A stretch of DNA of 58,660 nucleotides from a virus (Duplodnaviria; Caudoviricetes): IMG/VR virus record IMGVR_UViG_3300029327_000042, positions 1-58,660 of that record. One strand, 5' to 3'. The translations under genes were made by a program, and so were the position numbers. The notes below the pieces were generated by a model, which was not told where the DNA came from, ran no database searches, and was given only the letters and a program-made list of their open reading frames with translations. Positions 41,327 to 58,182 of this stretch are shown one piece after another (position 1 is the stretch's first letter; every line of letters starts with the position of its first letter).

Positions 41327-42148
41327 CTAGTCGAATTCCTTCCCTGCCCAGCGGACTCGGCCGAGGATATATTGCTTAAGGGATCGGCCGGGCACCAAGT
41401 CAAATTCGAAGGGTCTGTAAACGGCAACATTGTCACTCATGCAGATAAGAGTCATCCGGCCGTCCTCCTTGCGGCTCAGCGCCAGGCGCTTAATCGCGGA
41501 GCTTCCGTCCGGCATTATTATCATGTAGATTGAGCCGGTGCGAACGTCTAACCGCTCCCCCTCGTAAGTGTCCACCATTACAACTTCACCTGGATTGATC
41601 GTGGGGCTCATCGAATCTCCCCGAACCTTTATCAGGACAAGAAATTTCTTCCTGAACTCATCTTTCCCAACCATCCGCTCGATCCACCATTTCTTGAACG
41701 GATATTGATCGGCGACCTCATCAAAGATGATTTCTCCTTCAGGTCCAGCGGCAACTCTCGATTCGAGTAGAGGTAAAAGCTCAAAATCCTCAGGCGATAA
41801 GCAGTTATAGGGCGCCTGCTGCTCGCTCAACTCCTCGCCCCGCCGCATTGGCCCCTCGCCGGAAAGCAGCCAGTCAGAAGAAATCCCATGCTTCTCGAAC
41901 GCTTCAACAATCCATTGAGCAGGAAGACGTTGTCTTTTTCTCGCAGATCCAAACGATCCGAGGGTCAGGTTTAAAATTTTCATCAGTTCTGTTGGATTTT
42001 TAGCACCGAGAGCACTGATAAGCCTCTCCAGTTTTGACTCGAATAGCGGATCAGGCTGGTTCGCTTGCTCTTCAGGATCAACCGAACCACCAAGCGAACT
42101 AGTTGGCTTGGTGGATTTGTGATCTATGCCGTTGTTTATATTAGACAT
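41327..42148 (-). CDS. CI-like phage repressor (HTH + S24 peptidase)
   Basis: ISSDWLLSGEGPM, VAAG, KVRGDSMSPTI, AIKRL, ILGRVRW; divergent from the early operon. Confidence 0.9.
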   Translation of the reverse strand: MSNINNGIDHKSTKPTSSLGGSVDPEEQANQPDPLFESKLERLISALGAKNPTELMKILNLTLGSFGSARKRQRLPAQWIVEAFEKHGISSDWLLSGEGPMRRGEELSEQQAPYNCLSPEDFELLPLLESRVAAGPEGEIIFDEVADQYPFKKWWIERMVGKDEFRKKFLVLIKVRGDSMSPTINPGEVVMVDTYEGERLDVRTGSIYMIIMPDGSSAIKRLALSRKEDGRMTLICMSDNVAVYRPFEFDLVPGRSLKQYILGRVRWAGKEFD

Positions 42149-42270
42149 AATGTTACACCGCCCAAAAGTGATAAAAATCCACGTTGCGAACAAAATATTC
42201 ATTGACTCACTAATGAAAATCATTAGAATGCTGTAACATACGTTTCAATCACAAATTACAGGATTCGGAC

Positions 42271-42717: not shown

Positions 42718-42905
42718 GACCCGAATGGCAGCTTAAAGGCATCAAAAAGTGGTTGATCGATTTGAACATGACGCAAGATCAGATCGCAAAGGCCGCAGGT
42801 GTGAGCCGCCCCCTGGTTAGCCTCACCATTTCAGGCCGAAGGAAGAATAAACAAGTGATTGACTTCCTTTTATCTAAAGGGTGCCCGAGGAACTTGCTCG
42901 ATTGA
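42714..42905 (+). CDS. Ner/Cro-like HTH
   Basis: MTQDQIAKAAGVSRPLVSLTISGRR. Confidence 0.75.
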   Translation: MRPEWQLKGIKKWLIDLNMTQDQIAKAAGVSRPLVSLTISGRRKNKQVIDFLLSKGCPRNLLD

Positions 42906-42931
42906 TCTTTAGCGGCGGAGGCCGAAATCAG

Positions 42932-45214
42932 ATGAACGACCGGGTAACAGTAAAGGATCTAGCGGCGTCGCTCGGGATAACCGAACGGGCGGTGCAGAAA
43001 AAAGCGAAGGAGAAGAACTGGCCGGCGCAGGATTCCACAAATCCAAAGGGCGGTCGGCCGATCAAAACTTTCCCGCTTTCAATCCTTTCCAGGGAAGACC
43101 AGGAAAAGGTAGCTAAGCATCGCCTGGAGGAGCGGCTCCGAAATCCCATGTACCTGGTCGACAAAAATGCCCAGTCCTCCGCAAGCAAAAACGCCGGTTT
43201 GTCAATTCCAAATGCCGGTTTGTCAAATCCGCCCACCGTTCCCGGACAGATGACATCCGGTACAGGTTTAACAAACTCAAACAAACAGGCCGCCCCTCCG
43301 GCTCGGTCCGACCAGGTTGGGCTTGCAAAGTTCAACCTGGTCACCGCCTGGAGAAACCTCCTTGAGTCGCAGCCTCACGGCAAAAAGATCGAGGCGACCC
43401 AGGCGTTTTTGCTTGCGTACAACTCGGGGCGGCTGCTTCCCGGACCCTTCGCCCTGGTCGGGCCAATGGCATCGGGCACACTCCGCGATCTTGACAAAAA
43501 ACTCCGGGCGTCTCGCGATCAAAATAACGGCGTCGAGGACTACCACGCGATATGCGACGGTCGCGGCGGGTGGCGAAAGCACGGGACCACCTTGTGGAGG
43601 CAGAGATCGCTTTCGAATGAGGCCAAAGATGTCTTCTTGTCATGCTGGCTTCGGCCCGAACAACCCACGGTCGCGCTCGCGATCCGCGCCGCCAGGATGA
43701 TGCTGGAGAAGCGCGGAACGCCGGAACCATCCGACGACCGCACCTGGCGAAGATGGCTCGAAGACTGGTCCAAAAGATCTCAGCATATAATAGTGCTCGC
43801 ACGCGAGGGCGAAAAAGCCTACCGAGACAAGGTCGGCCCCTATATCACACGCGACGACTCGATGCTTGAGCCCGGCCAGGTGCTCATTGCAGACGGCCAC
43901 GATCTAAACTTCCAGATCCTGCACCCCCAAACCGGGAAGCCCTCGCGCCTCAAGCTGGTGATGTTTTTCGACTGGGCATCGCGCATGCCGGTCGGCTGGC
44001 AGATCATGCCCACCGAGAACTCGGTCGTCATCCACGCGGCCCTTCGCAACGCGATCATAGCCCTGGGCAAGGTGCCGGATGTCGTCTATCTCGATAACGG
44101 CAAGGCATTCAAGGCCAAGGTTTTTACCGATTCGAGCCCGGATCTTACCGAATTTACCGGCATCTACGCCCGCCTCGGGATCGCCACGCAGTTCGCGCAG
44201 CCCTACAACGCCCGCGCAAAGATTATCGAGCGGTTTTTCCAGACGCTAAACGAGCAGTTCGAGCGGCTGATGTCTAGCTACACCGGGGCATCGATTGCCG
44301 ATAAGCCGGCCTGGACCTCCCGAAACGAAAAATTCCACAAGGCCATGCACGCCAAACGCACGGGCGGCTGGGTCCCCGACATCCGGGAAGCCGCCTGGCT
44401 CGTATCGCTCTACATCCAGTGGTACTCGCAGCAGGAACACTCCGGGATCAACTTCCAAAAACCGGCCGACCTGCTCGCCGCCGGCAGGGGTCCCGGAGTG
44501 GACGTCGCCGACCTCAACTACAGGATGCTTTGGGAAAAGACTGCTGTTCCGCACCGCTGCCGGGTGACCCTCTTTGGAATCGACTACGAATCGGACTGCC
44601 TGCACGGCTACGCGGACAAGGTTGTGGTCAAGTACGACTGCTCCGACCTCGCAAAAATCTGGTTCTACACGGCTGACCGCGAGTACCTCGGCGAGGGCCT
44701 CCCCGTCCAGGCGCTAAACCCAATCGCCCGCCAGCTCGGAGACCAGGTGGGAGTCGACCAGGTCAAATCGGCTATTGCTCGCCAGCGCAGCCTGGCCAAG
44801 CAGACAAAAGCCGGCCTGCTGGAACTCGGGGCTTCGAATGAAACAGCCGAAGGACTTTCGGCCCTGCCCTGGCGGCAAAAAGCTGCGGTGCTTCCAGGAG
44901 GGAAATCAGAATCAGCGCAACCCAAGCTCGAAGCGCCCATGCCCGAAGAGGAGAAGGCACGTCTTGAGCTGGTTGCCAGCCGGGCCGAGGCCGAGATCCG
45001 CAGGGAAGAAGAGTCAAGGCCCGAACTGGAGCGCCCCGAGCAATTCCGCAGCCCGGCAGAGAGGTTCGAGTGGTGCTGGAGGGCTCAACACCAGCACAAA
45101 GCCGAGCTGACCCACGAAGAGCAGGCGTTTATGGCCTGGTACCAGACTACTGAAGAATTCCAGACGGTCTGTCGGCAGCGGATTGAAGACCTTGAGATGA
45201 TTTACTGCCAATAA
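42932..45214 (+). CDS. MuA-like DDE transposase
   Basis: N-terminal HTH; LIADGH, FDWASR, YLDNGKAF, AKIIERFF; GGAGG RBS. Confidence 0.92.
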   Translation: MNDRVTVKDLAASLGITERAVQKKAKEKNWPAQDSTNPKGGRPIKTFPLSILSREDQEKVAKHRLEERLRNPMYLVDKNAQSSASKNAGLSIPNAGLSNPPTVPGQMTSGTGLTNSNKQAAPPARSDQVGLAKFNLVTAWRNLLESQPHGKKIEATQAFLLAYNSGRLLPGPFALVGPMASGTLRDLDKKLRASRDQNNGVEDYHAICDGRGGWRKHGTTLWRQRSLSNEAKDVFLSCWLRPEQPTVALAIRAARMMLEKRGTPEPSDDRTWRRWLEDWSKRSQHIIVLAREGEKAYRDKVGPYITRDDSMLEPGQVLIADGHDLNFQILHPQTGKPSRLKLVMFFDWASRMPVGWQIMPTENSVVIHAALRNAIIALGKVPDVVYLDNGKAFKAKVFTDSSPDLTEFTGIYARLGIATQFAQPYNARAKIIERFFQTLNEQFERLMSSYTGASIADKPAWTSRNEKFHKAMHAKRTGGWVPDIREAAWLVSLYIQWYSQQEHSGINFQKPADLLAAGRGPGVDVADLNYRMLWEKTAVPHRCRVTLFGIDYESDCLHGYADKVVVKYDCSDLAKIWFYTADREYLGEGLPVQALNPIARQLGDQVGVDQVKSAIARQRSLAKQTKAGLLELGASNETAEGLSALPWRQKAAVLPGGKSESAQPKLEAPMPEEEKARLELVASRAEAEIRREEESRPELERPEQFRSPAERFEWCWRAQHQHKAELTHEEQAFMAWYQTTEEFQTVCRQRIEDLEMIYCQ

Positions 45215-52714: not shown

Positions 52715-53226
52715 ACCACCGCGAGTTGCTGCTCAGTGCCTCAAAAAAGGCGAGGTTCGCATTCCTGTCCCTGCCCGAGGGTCTCCAGGATGAAATAATC
52801 GCAGGTCTGGACGGGCAGACCCTTACCCTGCAATCAGCATCCGCGCTGGTCAAAGAGCGCGGTCATAGCCTGAGCCATGAAGGCATCGCGGGCTATTACC
52901 GGGCGCTTCGAACGGAGAGGCGGCTCCTGGGAGTGCGCGAGGAGATGTCGCGCATTATCGCCGAATACGCCAAGAAGCCACACAAAGAGGCACTGGAAAG
53001 TCTGGTCAACCTGGCCATCGCAACAGCGGCGACCGGTTTGGTTGATGGTTCGACGAAAATGAAAATCGACCTGGCGGCCCTGGTCAAGGCGCTGCCGCAG
53101 GATCAGCCTGCTCCCGTACAGCCGGAGCCACAGGCCGGTGAACAGAAGCAATCGCCCGAGTCTGGACCCGGACTCAGCGAACAGGCGGCCGAAGAGATCC
53201 GCAAAAAGGTGCTTGGAATAAGATGA
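52711..53226 (+). CDS. Mu gp27-like (DUF3486) small terminase
   Basis: LPEGLQDEI...GHSLSHEGIAGY...GLSEQAAEEIRKKVLGI; sits before the terminase. Confidence 0.75.
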   Translation: MNHRELLLSASKKARFAFLSLPEGLQDEIIAGLDGQTLTLQSASALVKERGHSLSHEGIAGYYRALRTERRLLGVREEMSRIIAEYAKKPHKEALESLVNLAIATAATGLVDGSTKMKIDLAALVKALPQDQPAPVQPEPQAGEQKQSPESGPGLSEQAAEEIRKKVLGIR

Positions 53227-54686
53227 GCGAAATTCCCGACCTCCTCATGCCCTACCAGAAGGCCTGGATCGCCGATAAGGCCCCGGTCAAACTGTGCGAG
53301 AAATCGCGCCGCGTCGGGCTTTCCTGGTGCGAAGCGGCGGACGATGTGCTCGAAGCGGCAAGCACCGGCGGCATGGATGTCTGGTATATCGGCTACAACA
53401 AGGAGATGGCCCTCGAATTCATTAATGATTGCGCCTTCTGGGTCGGCGTCTACGGCGAAGCGGCATCGGCGATGGAAGAAGTCCTGGTCGAGGACGAGGA
53501 CCATGACATCATCGCCTTCAGGATAACTTTTTCAAGCGGCAAGCGTGTGACCGCGCTTTCCTCCAGGCCCTCGAACCTTCGAGGCAAGCAGGGCAAGGTA
53601 GTGATCGATGAGGCCGCTTTCCACAACGACCTTCCAGGGCTGCTCAAGGCCGCAATCGCCCTTCTTATGTGGGGCGGGCGTGTCGTGGTTATCTCCACCC
53701 ACTTCGGCGAGGACAATCCATTCAACGATCTGATCGGAGAGATCCGCGCCGGCAAGAAGCCCTACTCCTTACACAGGATTACGCTCGATGACGCCCTGGC
53801 GCAGGGCCTCTATCGCCGAATCTGCCTCAAAACAAACCAGGAATGGACAGCAGAGGGCGAAGCGGCCTGGCGCCAGGATCTCATAAATTCCTACGGCGAT
53901 GATTCCGATGAGGAACTTTTCTGCATCCCGAGCAAGGGGTCCGGCATCTACCTGCCTCGAAATATTATCGAAGCCTGCATGGATGCCCAAATACCGGTGG
54001 TCCGCTGGAAATGCACGCCGGAATTCGCGGAGCAGCCCGAGGATGCGCGCACCGCCGCCGCCCTTGCCTGGTGCGTCCTATACCTCGATCCGGTCCTGGA
54101 CGTCCTGCCCGAGAACTGGCCAACCTACTTCGGCGAGGATTTCGGCCGCACCGGTGACCTGACGGTGATTGTCCCCCTCCAGGAGCAGCCGTTTCTCACC
54201 TACCGCGATATCTGCCAGATCGAACTTCGAAACGTTCCCTTCAGGCAGCAAGAACAGGTCCTCTTCTATCTTCTCGACCGTCTGCCCAGATTTCGCGGAG
54301 GCGCAATGGACGCGCGCGGAAACGGCCAGTATCTAGCCGAAGTCGCCATGCAGCGCTACGGCTCCTCGCGGATCGCCCAGGTAATGCTCTCCGAGACCTG
54401 GTACCGCGAGAATATGCCCCCGCTCAAAAGCGCCCTTGAAGACCGAAAGATGGCCATTCCGAAAGATGCGGACACCCTGGACGACCTTCGAGCGGTCAAG
54501 ATGGAAAAGGGCGTGGCAAAGGTCCCGGATACCTACAAGGGAAAAGGTCGCGACGGCGGGCAACGCCACGGAGATTCCGCAATAGCTCACGCCCTGGCTT
54601 GGTCGGCAACAAAGATGGCCGGCGGGCCTCCTGAATATGAATCAGTCGGCGAGCGCCGCTTTGCGAATCACAGAGGAGCTTACTAA
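53223..54686 (+). CDS. Mu gp28-like terminase large subunit
   Basis: LMPYQKAW, EKSRRVGLSW, VIDEAAFH, ISTH, GEDFGRTGD, RHGDSAIA. Confidence 0.92.
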   Translation: MSEIPDLLMPYQKAWIADKAPVKLCEKSRRVGLSWCEAADDVLEAASTGGMDVWYIGYNKEMALEFINDCAFWVGVYGEAASAMEEVLVEDEDHDIIAFRITFSSGKRVTALSSRPSNLRGKQGKVVIDEAAFHNDLPGLLKAAIALLMWGGRVVVISTHFGEDNPFNDLIGEIRAGKKPYSLHRITLDDALAQGLYRRICLKTNQEWTAEGEAAWRQDLINSYGDDSDEELFCIPSKGSGIYLPRNIIEACMDAQIPVVRWKCTPEFAEQPEDARTAAALAWCVLYLDPVLDVLPENWPTYFGEDFGRTGDLTVIVPLQEQPFLTYRDICQIELRNVPFRQQEQVLFYLLDRLPRFRGGAMDARGNGQYLAEVAMQRYGSSRIAQVMLSETWYRENMPPLKSALEDRKMAIPKDADTLDDLRAVKMEKGVAKVPDTYKGKGRDGGQRHGDSAIAHALAWSATKMAGGPPEYESVGERRFANHRGAY

Positions 54687-54689
54687 AAA

Positions 54690-56342
54690 ATGCTGCTCGA
54701 TCAGTTCGGCCGAGAGATCCAGATGGGGGATATCAGGACCCCGGAAACCCGCGAAATATCGGTCCAGCTCCTGCGCGACCGCTACAGCACTTATCCCAGC
54801 TCCGGCCTCACGCCCGACCGGCTGGCAACGATCCTCAAGGCCGCCGACCAGGGAGACGTACTCCGCCAGGCGGAACTGTTCGAAGAAATGGAAGAAAAGG
54901 ACGCCCACCTGGCGTCGCAGTTCCAGACCCGCAAATTGGCCGTGCAAGGTCTTTCGTGGGAGATATCGCCGACATCCGAAGATTCCGCCGACAAGAAAAT
55001 TGCGGAATTTTGCAATATGGTTCTCGAAGGCCTGGCCGACCTCGACGATCACATCCTCGATATGCTCGACGCCCTTGGCAAAGGCTACTCGATGATGGAA
55101 ATCATGTGGGATACCTCTTCAGGCCAGGCGAACGTCACCGGGCTCAACTGGATACACGCCAAGAAGCTCACCTTCTGGAACTCCATACACCCCAGGGTGC
55201 TAACCGAAGAAGACCAGGTACAGGGCATCGATCCGCCCCCATTCAAGTTCGTCTACCACCGCTACAAGGCCCGGTCAGGCTATGACACAAGGGCCGGGAT
55301 CATGCGCGTTTGCGCCTTCATGTACCTTTTCAAAAATTATGCAATTAAAGACTGGGTATCGTTTGCTGAAGTATATGGCATGCCGATCCGGGTTGGAAAG
55401 TTCGAGCCGGGTGCATCGAAAGCGGACAAAGACGCCCTGATAAATGCAATCCGCTCGCTCGGAGCCGATGCCGCCGGCATCATATCCAAATCCACCGAAA
55501 TCGAATTTATCGAATCGACCAAGACCAGCTCGCTAAACGTCTACGAAAGCCTGGTAACTTTTTGCGATGCGCAAATGTCAAAGGCCATCCTCGGCCAGAC
55601 GCTCACATCGGAAGCCGGCGGCAGCAAGGGCCAGGGCAGCTTCGCTCTCGGCCAGGTGCATAACGACGTCAGGCAGGACCTGATAGAGGCAGACTGCCGC
55701 GCACTCGGTAAAACCATCACCCAGCAGATCCTCCGTCCCCTGGTCGGCTTTAATTTCGGCTGGGACGCGCCGATACCGCAGTTCCGGTTTCTCTACGAGC
55801 CTCCGGAAGACCTCAAGGCCGCCGCCGATGTGTACAAGATCGTGAGCGACATGGGGCAGCCGATCAGCCAGGAACATATCAGCGAGCGATTTAAGATACC
55901 TCTTCCGAAAGATGGCGAGACGCCCTTAAAGAAGCCGACCCCGCCTCCGCAACCGTTCGGAGGCATGCCGCCCGGATCGCTGCCGGGAATGCAGCCCGAA
56001 AAAAAGCCTCCTGAAGGACCGCCCGAAAACAATCCGCCCGAGGATGAGCCGCCCCCGGCAAAGGCGAAGCGTATCGCAAAAAGTGTTAAGGGGGGCGGCG
56101 AACCGTCCGGTCAGAAGGCAATCGACGCCATGCGCCGAAAGGCATTGCCGAAGGCAACCGATGAGATCCAGGCAATGCTCAAGCCGGTCTTGGACATGAT
56201 TAAAAACGCTGAATCTCTCGAAGAGATCGGCGCGAAAATCTACGCCCTCTATCCGCGCCTGGACGGCGAGCGCTTCCAGCAGCTCCTCGCCCGCGCGATC
56301 CTCGCCTCGGCCCTAACCGGCGGCGCAAGCGAGGGTGAATGA
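54690..56342 (+). CDS. Mu gp29-like portal (DUF935)
   Basis: LLDQFG, LFEEMEEKD, FAEVYGMPIRVGK, MSKAILGQTLT, VHNDVRQD. Confidence 0.92.
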   Translation: MLLDQFGREIQMGDIRTPETREISVQLLRDRYSTYPSSGLTPDRLATILKAADQGDVLRQAELFEEMEEKDAHLASQFQTRKLAVQGLSWEISPTSEDSADKKIAEFCNMVLEGLADLDDHILDMLDALGKGYSMMEIMWDTSSGQANVTGLNWIHAKKLTFWNSIHPRVLTEEDQVQGIDPPPFKFVYHRYKARSGYDTRAGIMRVCAFMYLFKNYAIKDWVSFAEVYGMPIRVGKFEPGASKADKDALINAIRSLGADAAGIISKSTEIEFIESTKTSSLNVYESLVTFCDAQMSKAILGQTLTSEAGGSKGQGSFALGQVHNDVRQDLIEADCRALGKTITQQILRPLVGFNFGWDAPIPQFRFLYEPPEDLKAAADVYKIVSDMGQPISQEHISERFKIPLPKDGETPLKKPTPPPQPFGGMPPGSLPGMQPEKKPPEGPPENNPPEDEPPPAKAKRIAKSVKGGGEPSGQKAIDAMRRKALPKATDEIQAMLKPVLDMIKNAESLEEIGAKIYALYPRLDGERFQQLLARAILASALTGGASEGE

Positions 56343-57079
56343 AAATCGACGCCGTTCCCTTCGATCTCGACTTCGAGGAGGCCATAGCCTGGTTTCGGAG
56401 CAAAGGCTATGCGATTACGGCAACCTCCTGGAGGGAACTCTGGAAGCAGGCGAACGCTCGCGCTTTTACGGTGGCTCGCGTTACCGAAATGGACGTGCTG
56501 GTCGACATCAAAAACGAAGTCGACAAAGCAATCCGCAACGGCACAACGCTCAAGGAATTTAAAGACAACCTCATCCCGAAGCTCGAAGAAAAGGGATGGT
56601 GGGCCCCGACCGGTGAAAAGGCAATCGTGCAGCTCCCGGACGGGACCGAAATGAAGCGTCTCGCGCCCTGGCGGCTTGAGACCATTTTTAACACCAACAT
56701 TCAGACCGCCTACTCGGTCGGCCGGTTTCAGCAACAGATGGAAGTCGCGCAGGATCGCCCCTACTGGCAATACAAGGCGATCATCGATTCGGTCACCCGG
56801 CCCGATCACGCCGAGATGGACGACAGGGTTTATCACTACCTGCACCCGATCTGGAACGAATGGTATCCGCCCAACGGCTTTGGCTGAAGGTGCTACATCG
56901 TGACGCTCTCGGTCGAGGACGTAGGAGAACGCGGACTGGAAGAGGAAACAACCGGGGTATCGGCAAAACCCGATGAAGGCTGGGACTATAACGTCGGAAG
57001 AGAAGGCCTCAATTCCTACAAGCCGGACCTCTCTAAATACCCCGAGGACTTGGCCAGGCAGTACAAGGAGCCGGAATGA
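56339..57079 (+). CDS. MuF/gp30 head morphogenesis protein; in-frame TGA (56885-87) proposed as selenocysteine (246 aa)
   Basis: RAFTVA, RLETIFNTN, RPYWQY, D..TRPDH, YPPNGFG(TGA)RC. The frame continues 63 codons through PDEGWDYNVG to a TGA overlapping the next ATG. Confidence 0.8.
56903..56922 (+). promoter_or_regulatory. putative bacterial SECIS element
   Basis: ACG-c-UCUC-GGUC-GAGG-a-CGU hairpin; 23 nt separate the UGA from the loop; same GGUC loop as E. coli fdhF SECIS. Confidence 0.65.
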
Positions 57080-58182
57080 ACAAGTTCATAGTTATCGCGC
57101 AGATGCCCCCCGGAATAATTCCGACAGAGTTCCAGGTCTTTCCTGCCGGCCAGGTGGAGGCGAAAGGGGCCGGTGCCTTTACCGTCGACGCTGAAGCTAT
57201 GAACGCGGTCATCCAAAAGTTCCAGGCCCGAGGCCTGGACATGGTGATCGACTACGAACACCAGACCGAGGGCAAAACCGATCAATACGATTTCACCGCC
57301 CCTGACGGACGCGCTCCGGCTGCCGGCTGGATAAAGCGGCTGGAAAATCGCGGTCAGGACGGGCTCTGGGCGATTTGCGAATGGACCGACAAGGCCAGGG
57401 AATACCTCGCCAGCCGCGAGTACAGATACTTCTCGCCTGTTTTCATGGTTTCAAAAAGTTCCGGAAAATTGACGGAGCTGCTTAGAGTGGCGCTCACAAA
57501 CGCGCCGCGCCTTAATCAAATTCAGCCAATCGTGGCGAAAAATCTCAAGGAGGAAAGTATGGAGTTTTTAAAGAAAATAGCCAAGCTGCTCGGGCTCCCC
57601 GAGACGGCCACGGAAGACCAGGTGTCAGTTGCCATCGCCGGGCTTAACGGTCACAAGGAAACCGTTCTCGCATGCTCCAGGGAAGTAGGTCTAACCGATG
57701 CAACGGGCGGAGAAATCATTATCTCGGCGATCAAATCGCTCAAGGAACAGCCCGCAAAGATCGTTGCCTGCCCCGAAGTTATCGAGGCAATCGGCCTGGC
57801 CACAACCGCTACCAAGTCCGAAATCATAGCCTCGATCCACGCGCTGAAGCAGCGCCCCGACGCGACGGTTCTCCAGGAGATCGCATCGCTTAAAGCGCGC
57901 CTGGCCGAACGCGATAAGGACGATCTCGTCACCGCCGCGCTCAAGGAAGGCAAGATCACCCCGGCGCAGAAGGAATGGGCCGAAAAATACGCCCTGGCCG
58001 ATGCCGAAGGCTTCAAGCTTTTCGTAGCCAAGGCCCCACAGGTTGTGCCGACAGACAAGCTCCAGGTCGTACCCGATCCCAAGCCGGCTGCCGTGCCTGA
58101 TGACGCCCAGCTCCAGATCAACAAGATGCTCGGGGTCTCGGATGAGACCTGGAAAAAATACAACACGCCGGCGACGGCCTAA
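57076..58182 (+). CDS. Mu gp32/I-like protease-scaffold
   Basis: VIDYEHQT, APAAGWI, EYRYFSPVF, VALTNAP, GKITPAQKEWA. Confidence 0.9.
   Translation: MNKFIVIAQMPPGIIPTEFQVFPAGQVEAKGAGAFTVDAEAMNAVIQKFQARGLDMVIDYEHQTEGKTDQYDFTAPDGRAPAAGWIKRLENRGQDGLWAICEWTDKAREYLASREYRYFSPVFMVSKSSGKLTELLRVALTNAPRLNQIQPIVAKNLKEESMEFLKKIAKLLGLPETATEDQVSVAIAGLNGHKETVLACSREVGLTDATGGEIIISAIKSLKEQPAKIVACPEVIEAIGLATTATKSEIIASIHALKQRPDATVLQEIASLKARLAERDKDDLVTAALKEGKITPAQKEWAEKYALADAEGFKLFVAKAPQVVPTDKLQVVPDPKPAAVPDDAQLQINKMLGVSDETWKKYNTPATA

Follow-up and report, generated by a model that had tools for sequence, protein, structure and literature searches.

The DNA analysed here, called the window below, is the whole of the IMG/VR virus record IMGVR_UViG_3300029327_000042 (Duplodnaviria; Caudoviricetes), with a length of 58,660 bases. 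Towards its right-hand end it carries a MuF gene with an internal in-frame UGA at the position of a conserved cysteine. A previous sequence-only reading had proposed that this UGA encodes selenocysteine (Sec), with a hairpin behind it acting as a selenocysteine insertion sequence (SECIS), and this proposal was followed up by comparative analysis. The features at the locus are as follows:

54690..56342, plus strand: Mu-type portal gene (Pfam Portal_Mu, 7.2e-110), ending on a TGA stop in an ATGA overlap with the MuF start
56339..57079, plus strand: gene for a minor head (head morphogenesis) protein of the MuF / SPP1 gp7 family, with 246 codons provided that the internal UGA is decoded
56885..56887, plus strand: in-frame UGA, proposed Sec codon, at the column of the invariant first Cys in C-R-C
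56891..56893, plus strand: TGC coding for C185, the second invariant Cys, two codons past the UGA
56903..56922, plus strand: SECIS-like hairpin, energy −4.8 kcal/mol, or −10.2 kcal/mol when the lower stem is included
56888..57076, plus strand: 63 post-UGA codons, conserved MuF C-terminal part (RC...LS...RGL...PDEGWDYNVG)
57076..58182, plus strand: Mu-like prophage protein I (protease/scaffold) gene (Pfam Mu-like_Pro, 8.8e-81)

The open reading frame (ORF) 56339..56887 encodes 182 amino acids (aa) with the C-terminus ...WYPPNGFG, followed by TGA. Past this codon, the frame reads RCYIVTLSVEDVGERGLEEETTGVSAKPDEGWDYNVGREGLNSYKPDLSKYPEDLARQYKEPE (63 codons) up to the TGA at 57077-57079. It opens with RCYIVTLS..., contains the PDEGWDYNVG tail, and its final TGA overlaps the protease/scaffold ATG at 57076 as ATGA, exactly as the sequence-only reading had described. 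If the UGA is read as Sec, the read-through protein carries U183-R184-C185. The Pfam Phage_Mu_F match (6.5e-20) covers residues 56-187 and thus bridges the TGA. The protein scored 72.4 bits against PF04233 (cut-off 29.6), 43.5 bits against TIGR01641 (cut-off 39.65) and 3.2e-79 against phrog_220, and it shares 38% identity with phage Mu gp30 over 94% of the length. Both C183 and C185 were invariant in 44/44 aligned full-length homologues and in 59/59 C-terminal domains, which bears out the claim that the TGA replaces the first Cys of the MuF motif. Other invariant residues near the site are R154, H157, W172, P177, P178, G180, D212 and G214.

Between 56711 and 57079, the window agrees without a single difference with a contig (depth 26.9) that another assembler built from a public bioanode-metagenome run, although the run consists of DNA contigs possibly from the source sample and is therefore not independent sampling. 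It was the sole run listed for this sequence, and no RNA run was among the matches. A sequencing or assembly error, or a phage with TGA as a standard amino acid codon, would account for a bare stop codon and nothing further. The identical letters in the second assembly speak against an error, so the TGA is not an assembly artefact. As for reassignment, TGA is an ordinary stop in the window, where it closes the portal gene as well as MuF, and 32 of the 66 rough ORFs stop with it. No other TGA-joined frame in the window unites two halves of one recognisable gene, so that only the TGA at 56885 joins two conserved parts, and no tRNA gene was found within the window. The probability of either explanation is negligible. 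In the same run, a second, rarer MuF strain variant was seen over 56365-56509 and 56566-56740, with a depth of about 10-12 compared with about 24.

The TGA is also not private to this genome. A search with the read-through MuF against 5.8 billion proteins gave 1259 matches, and among the best 120 of them 13 had fewer than 200 aa, not counting the product of the window itself. All of these short homologues, with 55-71% identity to the query, end directly before the Cys of C-R-C, at ...PPNGF[G/N/F/R] (one at NHFF), and for two of them (L082 and L083) the stop codon was read in the DNA. The closest homologues, P0062 (71% identity) and P0063 (69%), are truncated at the same column as the window. 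DNA collections were then scanned with back-translated patterns, and genomes were searched with the protein. TGA was read in the DNA at the first-Cys column of 13 other distinct MuF genes (L081, L082, L083, L084, L087, L108, L131, L133, L134, L136, L137, L138 and G457), with 63-262 open codons behind it that encode the conserved C-terminal part of the family. The true MuF pattern matches were L081/L089, L082/L085/L090, L083, L084/L086, L087, L131/L132, L133, L134, L136, L137 and L138; the protein search, not the pattern, found L108 and G457, the latter reading U-L-C. Three further pattern matches (L088, L091 and L135) were judged to be due to chance. The window is one instance of a family-wide MuF UGA pattern.

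A match was obtained in 27 of 401 sampled genomes from the phylum to which the genome of L084 belongs, and 22 loci were motif-readable, 2 with TGA (G001, identical to L105, and G047, identical to L108) and 20 with TGC/TGT. In 401 genomes from the class of G001, 101 had a match, with an in-frame TGA in three match rows (G001, G592 and G457); G592 equals L137 around the motif, and this type occurs in a record derived from an isolate. The motif was readable in 67 of the best 80 viral relatives, giving 66 TGC/TGT and 1 TGA.

The second cysteine is also affected. Two MuF genes, L141 (locus position 610, plus strand) and L142 (3218, plus strand), carry the TGA in place of the second Cys and so read C-R-U; behind it lie 66 and 61 open codons, respectively, and GG-containing hairpins. 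The viral scan for this form returned 3 stretches, one of them by chance. As a control, the same viral scan with the TGA moved to the conserved Trp codon before YPPNG gave 0 matches. Since the Trp-codon scan was empty and the second-Cys scan yielded two real genes, the stops are confined to the two invariant cysteines.

Selection on the codons behind the TGA was evaluated in pairs of TGA forms. The ratio of nonsynonymous to synonymous substitution rates (dN/dS) was 0.30 downstream and 0.12 upstream of the TGA for L133/L134, 0.34 and 0.24 for L136/L138, and 0.21 and 0.14 for L081/L087. In two saturated pairs, the proportions of nonsynonymous and synonymous differences (pN and pS) were 0.35 and 0.95 for the window and L082 downstream of the TGA, and 0.28 and 0.85 for L082 and L083. 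Judged from these sequence comparisons, the codons behind the TGA are under purifying selection in TGA-form pairs, not under the relaxed selection expected of a pseudogene. With dN/dS low and pN far below pS, a dead gene is therefore excluded; a split gene would fit the selection data too.

A plain nonsense mutation would mean that the window holds a defective prophage with a MuF pseudogene cut by a TGC to TGA change. It would suit a Cys codon that lies one step from TGA, a window that is a mosaic of mobile elements with only the left 17 kb of a Mu-like element, and a weak hairpin. It sits badly with TGA at the same column in 13 other genes and with 13/13 short homologues ending there, when the neighbouring Trp codon is never hit, as well as with the purifying selection just described. 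Moreover, the stop is shared with P0062 and P0063 and has thus outlived much divergence, and 16 of the 18 differences between the strain variant and the window MuF fall at third codon positions, in the upstream part only. Such a mutation is therefore regarded as improbable.

It could also be proposed that the UGA is a true stop and that the C-terminal part is made separately, e.g., by re-initiation at the GTG at 56900, so that two polypeptides assemble. This in-frame GTG has a Shine-Dalgarno-like AAGG 7-9 nucleotides (nt) upstream and opens a 59-aa ORF (56900..57079). A split gene would, however, break inside the invariant C-x-C, with the first Cys lost and the RC codons untranslated, whereas RC (or LC) is kept in the forms found without requiring RC (L108 and G457). 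The other TGA forms have no start codon at a matching place (in L082 the first in-frame GTG comes 9 codons on), and loops starting with GGU would be left unexplained. This arrangement seems about as unlikely as the nonsense mutation.

The sequence-only reading had placed a hairpin with a GGUC loop 23 nt after the UGA, and it was located at 56903-56922. It reads ACG-C-UCUC[GGUC]GAGG-A-CGU, with a 4-bp upper stem, an ACG/CGU extension across a C-A mismatch and the apical loop at 56911-56914. The SECIS loop of E. coli fdhF is also GGUC. The energy with the lower stem (−10.2 kcal/mol) compares with an unconstrained minimum free energy (MFE) of −10.7 kcal/mol. The published consensus for bacterial SECIS elements (bSECIS), in the available text of PMC13188914, has a loop of 3-9 nt, an upper stem of 4-16 bp, an MFE of ≤ −7.5 kcal/mol, a G at the first or second loop position (in most cases G[G|U]) and a UGA-loop spacing of 16-37 nt. 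The window hairpin, with its GGUC loop on a 4-bp stem, its spacing of 23 and its energy of −10.2 kcal/mol, lies within this consensus on all points. Taken by itself it does not exceed chance expectation, whereas the comparative pattern does. The hairpins of the other TGA forms, present at the SECIS position, are the following:

L133 and L134: GUGUCA[GGUC]UGACAC, spacing 15 nt
L136: CCACC[GGUC]GGUGG, spacing 25 nt
L138: CCACA[GGUU]UGUGG, spacing 25 nt
L084: CCUCCC[GGC]GGGAGG, spacing 25 nt
L108: UCUCUC[GGC]GAGAGA, spacing 23 nt
G457: UGGGCGUC[GGC]GACGCCCG, spacing 21 nt
L131: UUCUCGG[CGGGC]CCGAGAG, spacing 19 nt
L137: AGCCUGUC[CGGGC]GACAGGUU, spacing 23 nt
L082: UCUGUC[CGUGA]GACAGA, spacing 23 nt
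L083: CUGUC[CGUGC]GGCAG, spacing 23 nt
L081: UGAC[CCGAA]GUCA, spacing 23 nt
L087: UGAC[CCGCA]GUCA, spacing 23 nt

The hairpin comparison rested on the unique sequences of the retrieved loci, 13 with TGA and 90 with Cys. The best contiguous hairpin with its loop 14-37 nt downstream had a mean energy of −5.7 kcal/mol in TGA forms and −2.3 kcal/mol in Cys forms (p = 6e-5). A hairpin of ≤ −5 kcal/mol whose loop has G at position one or two was found in 8/13 TGA and 4/90 Cys sequences (p = 2e-6), and a GGU-starting loop in 5/13 and 0/90, respectively (p = 1.5e-5). With G[G|U] required, the published bSECIS model was passed by 9/13 TGA and 18/90 Cys sequences (p = 6e-4).

Covariation was also studied. 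Between L136 and L138, a C-G pair is replaced by a compensatory A-U pair, and between L082 and L081 a U-A pair becomes A-U in the same register. Five forms aligned gap-free in one register had 82.5% of cells paired, compared with 25-40% when the partners were slid. Both sides change in 3 of the 8 pairs of this alignment, and its covariation score was reached by 3 of 500 shuffles, in a small sample and for a structure derived from the same five sequences. In addition, the five hairpin codons are identical in L133 and L134 despite a gene-wide pS of 0.5-0.6.

A hairpin behind a stop codon also invites an explanation independent of SelB, in which the ribosome is slowed by it and the UGA is decoded by a near-cognate tRNA (for Trp or Cys); short and full-length protein would then be made side by side, with no selenium. 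In every TGA form the next base after the UGA is C or A, a leaky context in E. coli, and in other systems read-through can be promoted by a hairpin placed behind the stop. Nevertheless, the site would probably not remain active with Trp in place of the invariant Cys. The loops, with G[G|U] at their start and a spacing of 15-25 nt, conform to the SelB-binding consensus and do not resemble just any stable structure, and the overall folding energy is not raised. Simple read-through is thus given only a slight chance.

Since Sec insertion requires host machinery, sel genes were searched for in four genomes that carry other TGA forms, with the following scores:

G001: tRNA-Sec 79.4 bits, SelB wing 63.2 bits, SelA 519 bits
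G047: tRNA-Sec 77.5 bits, SelB wing 74.1 bits, SelA 557 bits, SelD 392 bits
G592: tRNA-Sec 81.9 bits, SelB wing 62.2 bits, SelA 525 bits
G457: SelB wing 65.8 bits, SelA 522 bits

SelB and SelA were therefore present in 4/4 TGA-form genomes, and tRNA-Sec scored above the cut-off in 3/3 searched (G001, G047 and G592). Within the 58,660 bases of the window, no SelA, SelB, SelC or SelD gene was found. The nearest named MuF relatives come from metagenome-assembled genomes of Deltaproteobacteria and Desulfobacteraceae, at about 60% identity. In G047, the selD gene is itself a selenoprotein gene reading VKGAG-UGA-ASK (L143, G047:C8:108900-110500); its SECIS has a 6-bp upper stem, a GGGAU loop and a spacing of 19, the same type as the prophage hairpin. 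The same genome carries two MuF genes, a TGA form and a Cys form (at G047:C24:5993-6604 and G047:C9:18852-19565), presumably in two prophages.

A quick maximum-likelihood tree of 104 rows (13 TGA, 91 Cys) was calculated with the column masked, from 165 residues on its N-terminal and 20 on its C-terminal side. It requires 10 Cys/Sec changes, of which at least 8 are forced by well-supported branches alone. L081, L087, L133 and L134 form an all-TGA clade of four (support 98), and in the supported clade of 11 rows that contains the window, two further rows are TGA forms and eight are Cys forms. Sec and Cys forms are close neighbours in the pairs L108/L107, L083/L007 and L131/L126. Repeated Cys/Sec switching at a reactive Cys fits the account of bacterial selenoproteins in the available text of PMC1794560.

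The repeated replacement of either Cys by Sec suggests that C-x-C is a reactive (redox, nucleophilic or metal-binding) site, and its occurrence at either position suggests a cooperating pair (redox or metal). To our knowledge, no activity has been assigned to the MuF head protein. It is treated as a virion head protein and a carrier of injected effector domains in the available text of PMC5512222, and the words cysteine, motif, selen and stop codon are all absent from PMC5576092. The C-terminal domain (window 56651-57076, residues 105-246) was modelled with a predicted local distance difference test (pLDDT) score of 91.2 and a predicted template modelling (pTM) score of 0.80. When this domain model was compared with 48,161 PDB representatives by VIA-align wide, the best Z was 3.4. 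For the whole MuF model, Foldseek gave no match at E ≤ 0.001, VIA-align wide reached a best Z of 5.0 for a helical hairpin only, and a profile search of PDB sequences with MuF returned nothing relevant. A weak or absent structural match does not establish a new fold.

A number of observations weigh against the Sec interpretation. In the window, the 81-nt fold is unremarkable (z = 0.71), the hairpin is among the weakest (4-bp upper stem, C-A mismatch), and an Rfam scan of 56850-56980 with E up to 10 returned no SECIS family, with one chance long non-coding RNA row. Among the other TGA forms, L081 and L087 lack G in the first two loop positions, and the 15-nt spacing of L133 and L134 is below the 16-nt minimum. 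The loose published bSECIS model is passed by 10/13 TGA and 52/90 Cys sequences (p = 0.155), and for the whole 57-nt MFE no difference was seen between the two groups (p = 0.64). The hairpin p values were obtained with windows set partly after viewing the TGA forms, and the 13 TGA sequences represent about 9 lineages and are non-independent. Because Arg-Cys behind the TGA was part of the DNA pattern that yielded most TGA forms, the conservation of RC in these is circular, and TGA is the sole nonsense codon that TGC or TGT can reach in one step. Eight or more Cys/Sec switches are a lot for one family, a number that recombination of the C-terminal part could lower. Finally, no SelD above the cut-off was found in G001, and SelB is present in 186 of 201 sampled genomes of the host phylum. 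Because SelB is near-universal there, its presence in 4/4 hosts says little, and the host result is consistent with the Sec reading and does not discriminate.

On balance, the UGA at 56885-56887 is probably a genuine Sec codon, which is the best-supported explanation of the recurrence, the selection and the hairpins taken together, and the proposal of the sequence-only reading is upheld to this degree. Under this explanation, host SelB, as a complex with GTP and Sec-tRNA(Sec), would bind the hairpin on the translating mRNA during late gene expression and insert Sec, giving a MuF of 246 residues with a centre that reads U-R-C instead of C-R-C. If selenium or SelB were missing, translation would terminate at the UGA with release of a fragment of 182 residues, which would lack both invariant cysteines and the conserved C-terminal part and would presumably be inactive. 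Insertion would depend wholly on host SelA, SelB, SelC and SelD.

A broader proposition joins these points: MuF would be the first bacteriophage selenoprotein family; its C-x-C would act as a reactive centre of redox, nucleophilic or metal-binding type, and phages of selenium-rich anaerobes would have upgraded it to Sec on eight or more separate occasions, at either Cys; infective particles would need host SelABCD and selenium; and this would be an unrecognised chemistry in a virion protein whose fold is unmatched. It is put forward tentatively, as a combination that falls somewhat short of being probable.

The right-hand 17 kb of the window are the left part of a Mu-like prophage. By Pfam and PHROGs, the gene order around MuF is terminase large subunit, portal, MuF, protease/scaffold and virion protein. 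The remaining genes of this part are the following:

41327-42223, minus strand: repressor of the Mu-like prophage part
42881-45214: transposase (phrog_310, 1e-96)
between transposase and terminase in the listed gene order: transposition protein B
53223-54686: terminase large subunit (phrog_2, 2.5e-35)
after the protease/scaffold gene, running off the window end: virion protein

The terminase gene had no Pfam match at E ≤ 0.01, and PHROGs alone identify it. Positions 1-41200 belong to elements other than the Mu-like phage. This left 41 kb carries mobile and defence genes and no housekeeping genes; its products are a 998-aa protein that combines RCC1 repeats with a domain resembling C39 peptidases, an ATPase similar to coupling proteins, a PLD-helicase, an Eco57I-type methylase, a DEAD helicase, a DUF3644 protein and two integrases of the tyrosine type. 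The "98% complete virus" label of the record probably spans a mosaic of elements.

Selenoproteins have so far been described in cells and in two poxviruses with captured host peroxidases. MuF is a widespread head protein and also the carrier domain of phage-delivered toxins, and it has here a confident model without a match to a solved fold. If the Sec reading is true, MuF genes are systematically cut short or divided at the UGA by phage gene callers, and virion production in a set of phages of sulfate reducers and related anaerobes is tied to a trace element and to host recoding machinery, a selenium and recoding requirement that would be a new kind of host dependency. The repeated Cys-to-Sec replacement would then mark the MuF C-x-C as a chemically active site.

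In agreement with the sequence-only reading, which knew of no described case, no phage selenoprotein was found in the literature, supplementary lists of predicted families (e.g., Table S2 of PMC12013277) lying outside the search. A 2019 review calls two poxvirus peroxidases "the only proven examples" of viral selenoproteins, and "phage" and "bacteriophage" have 0 occurrences in its available text (PMC6769590).

Compared with known bacterial selenoproteins, of which E. coli fdhF is the prototype, the MuF gene has a UGA aligned with the Cys of homologues and an open frame after it, a small hairpin (in the window with a 4-bp upper stem, a 4-nt loop starting with GG and 23-nt spacing), and TGA-bearing homologues in Sec-using bacteria. 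It differs in that MuF is a virion-associated morphogenesis protein of phages and not a cellular oxidoreductase. Like Mu gp30 (F) and SPP1 gp7, it occupies the slot between the portal and the protease/scaffold genes and has the PPNG-x-x-C-R-C motif, but in the window the first Cys codon is UGA. Among the matches listed, 30/30 deposited phage records align in one piece, and none is annotated as split. Longer MuF relatives carry C-terminal effector domains (PBECR, ART), according to the available text of PMC5512222, whereas the window has a short form without them. The closest viral parallel in the available text of PMC6769590 is the glutathione peroxidase (GPX) of molluscum contagiosum virus and fowlpox virus, which is also a viral UGA-Sec protein relying on the host Sec machinery; the fowlpox SECIS lies within the reading frame, as does the MuF hairpin. 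The poxvirus GPX are captured host enzymes with a eukaryotic SECIS, whereas MuF is a native gene of the phage structural module with a bacterial-type hairpin.

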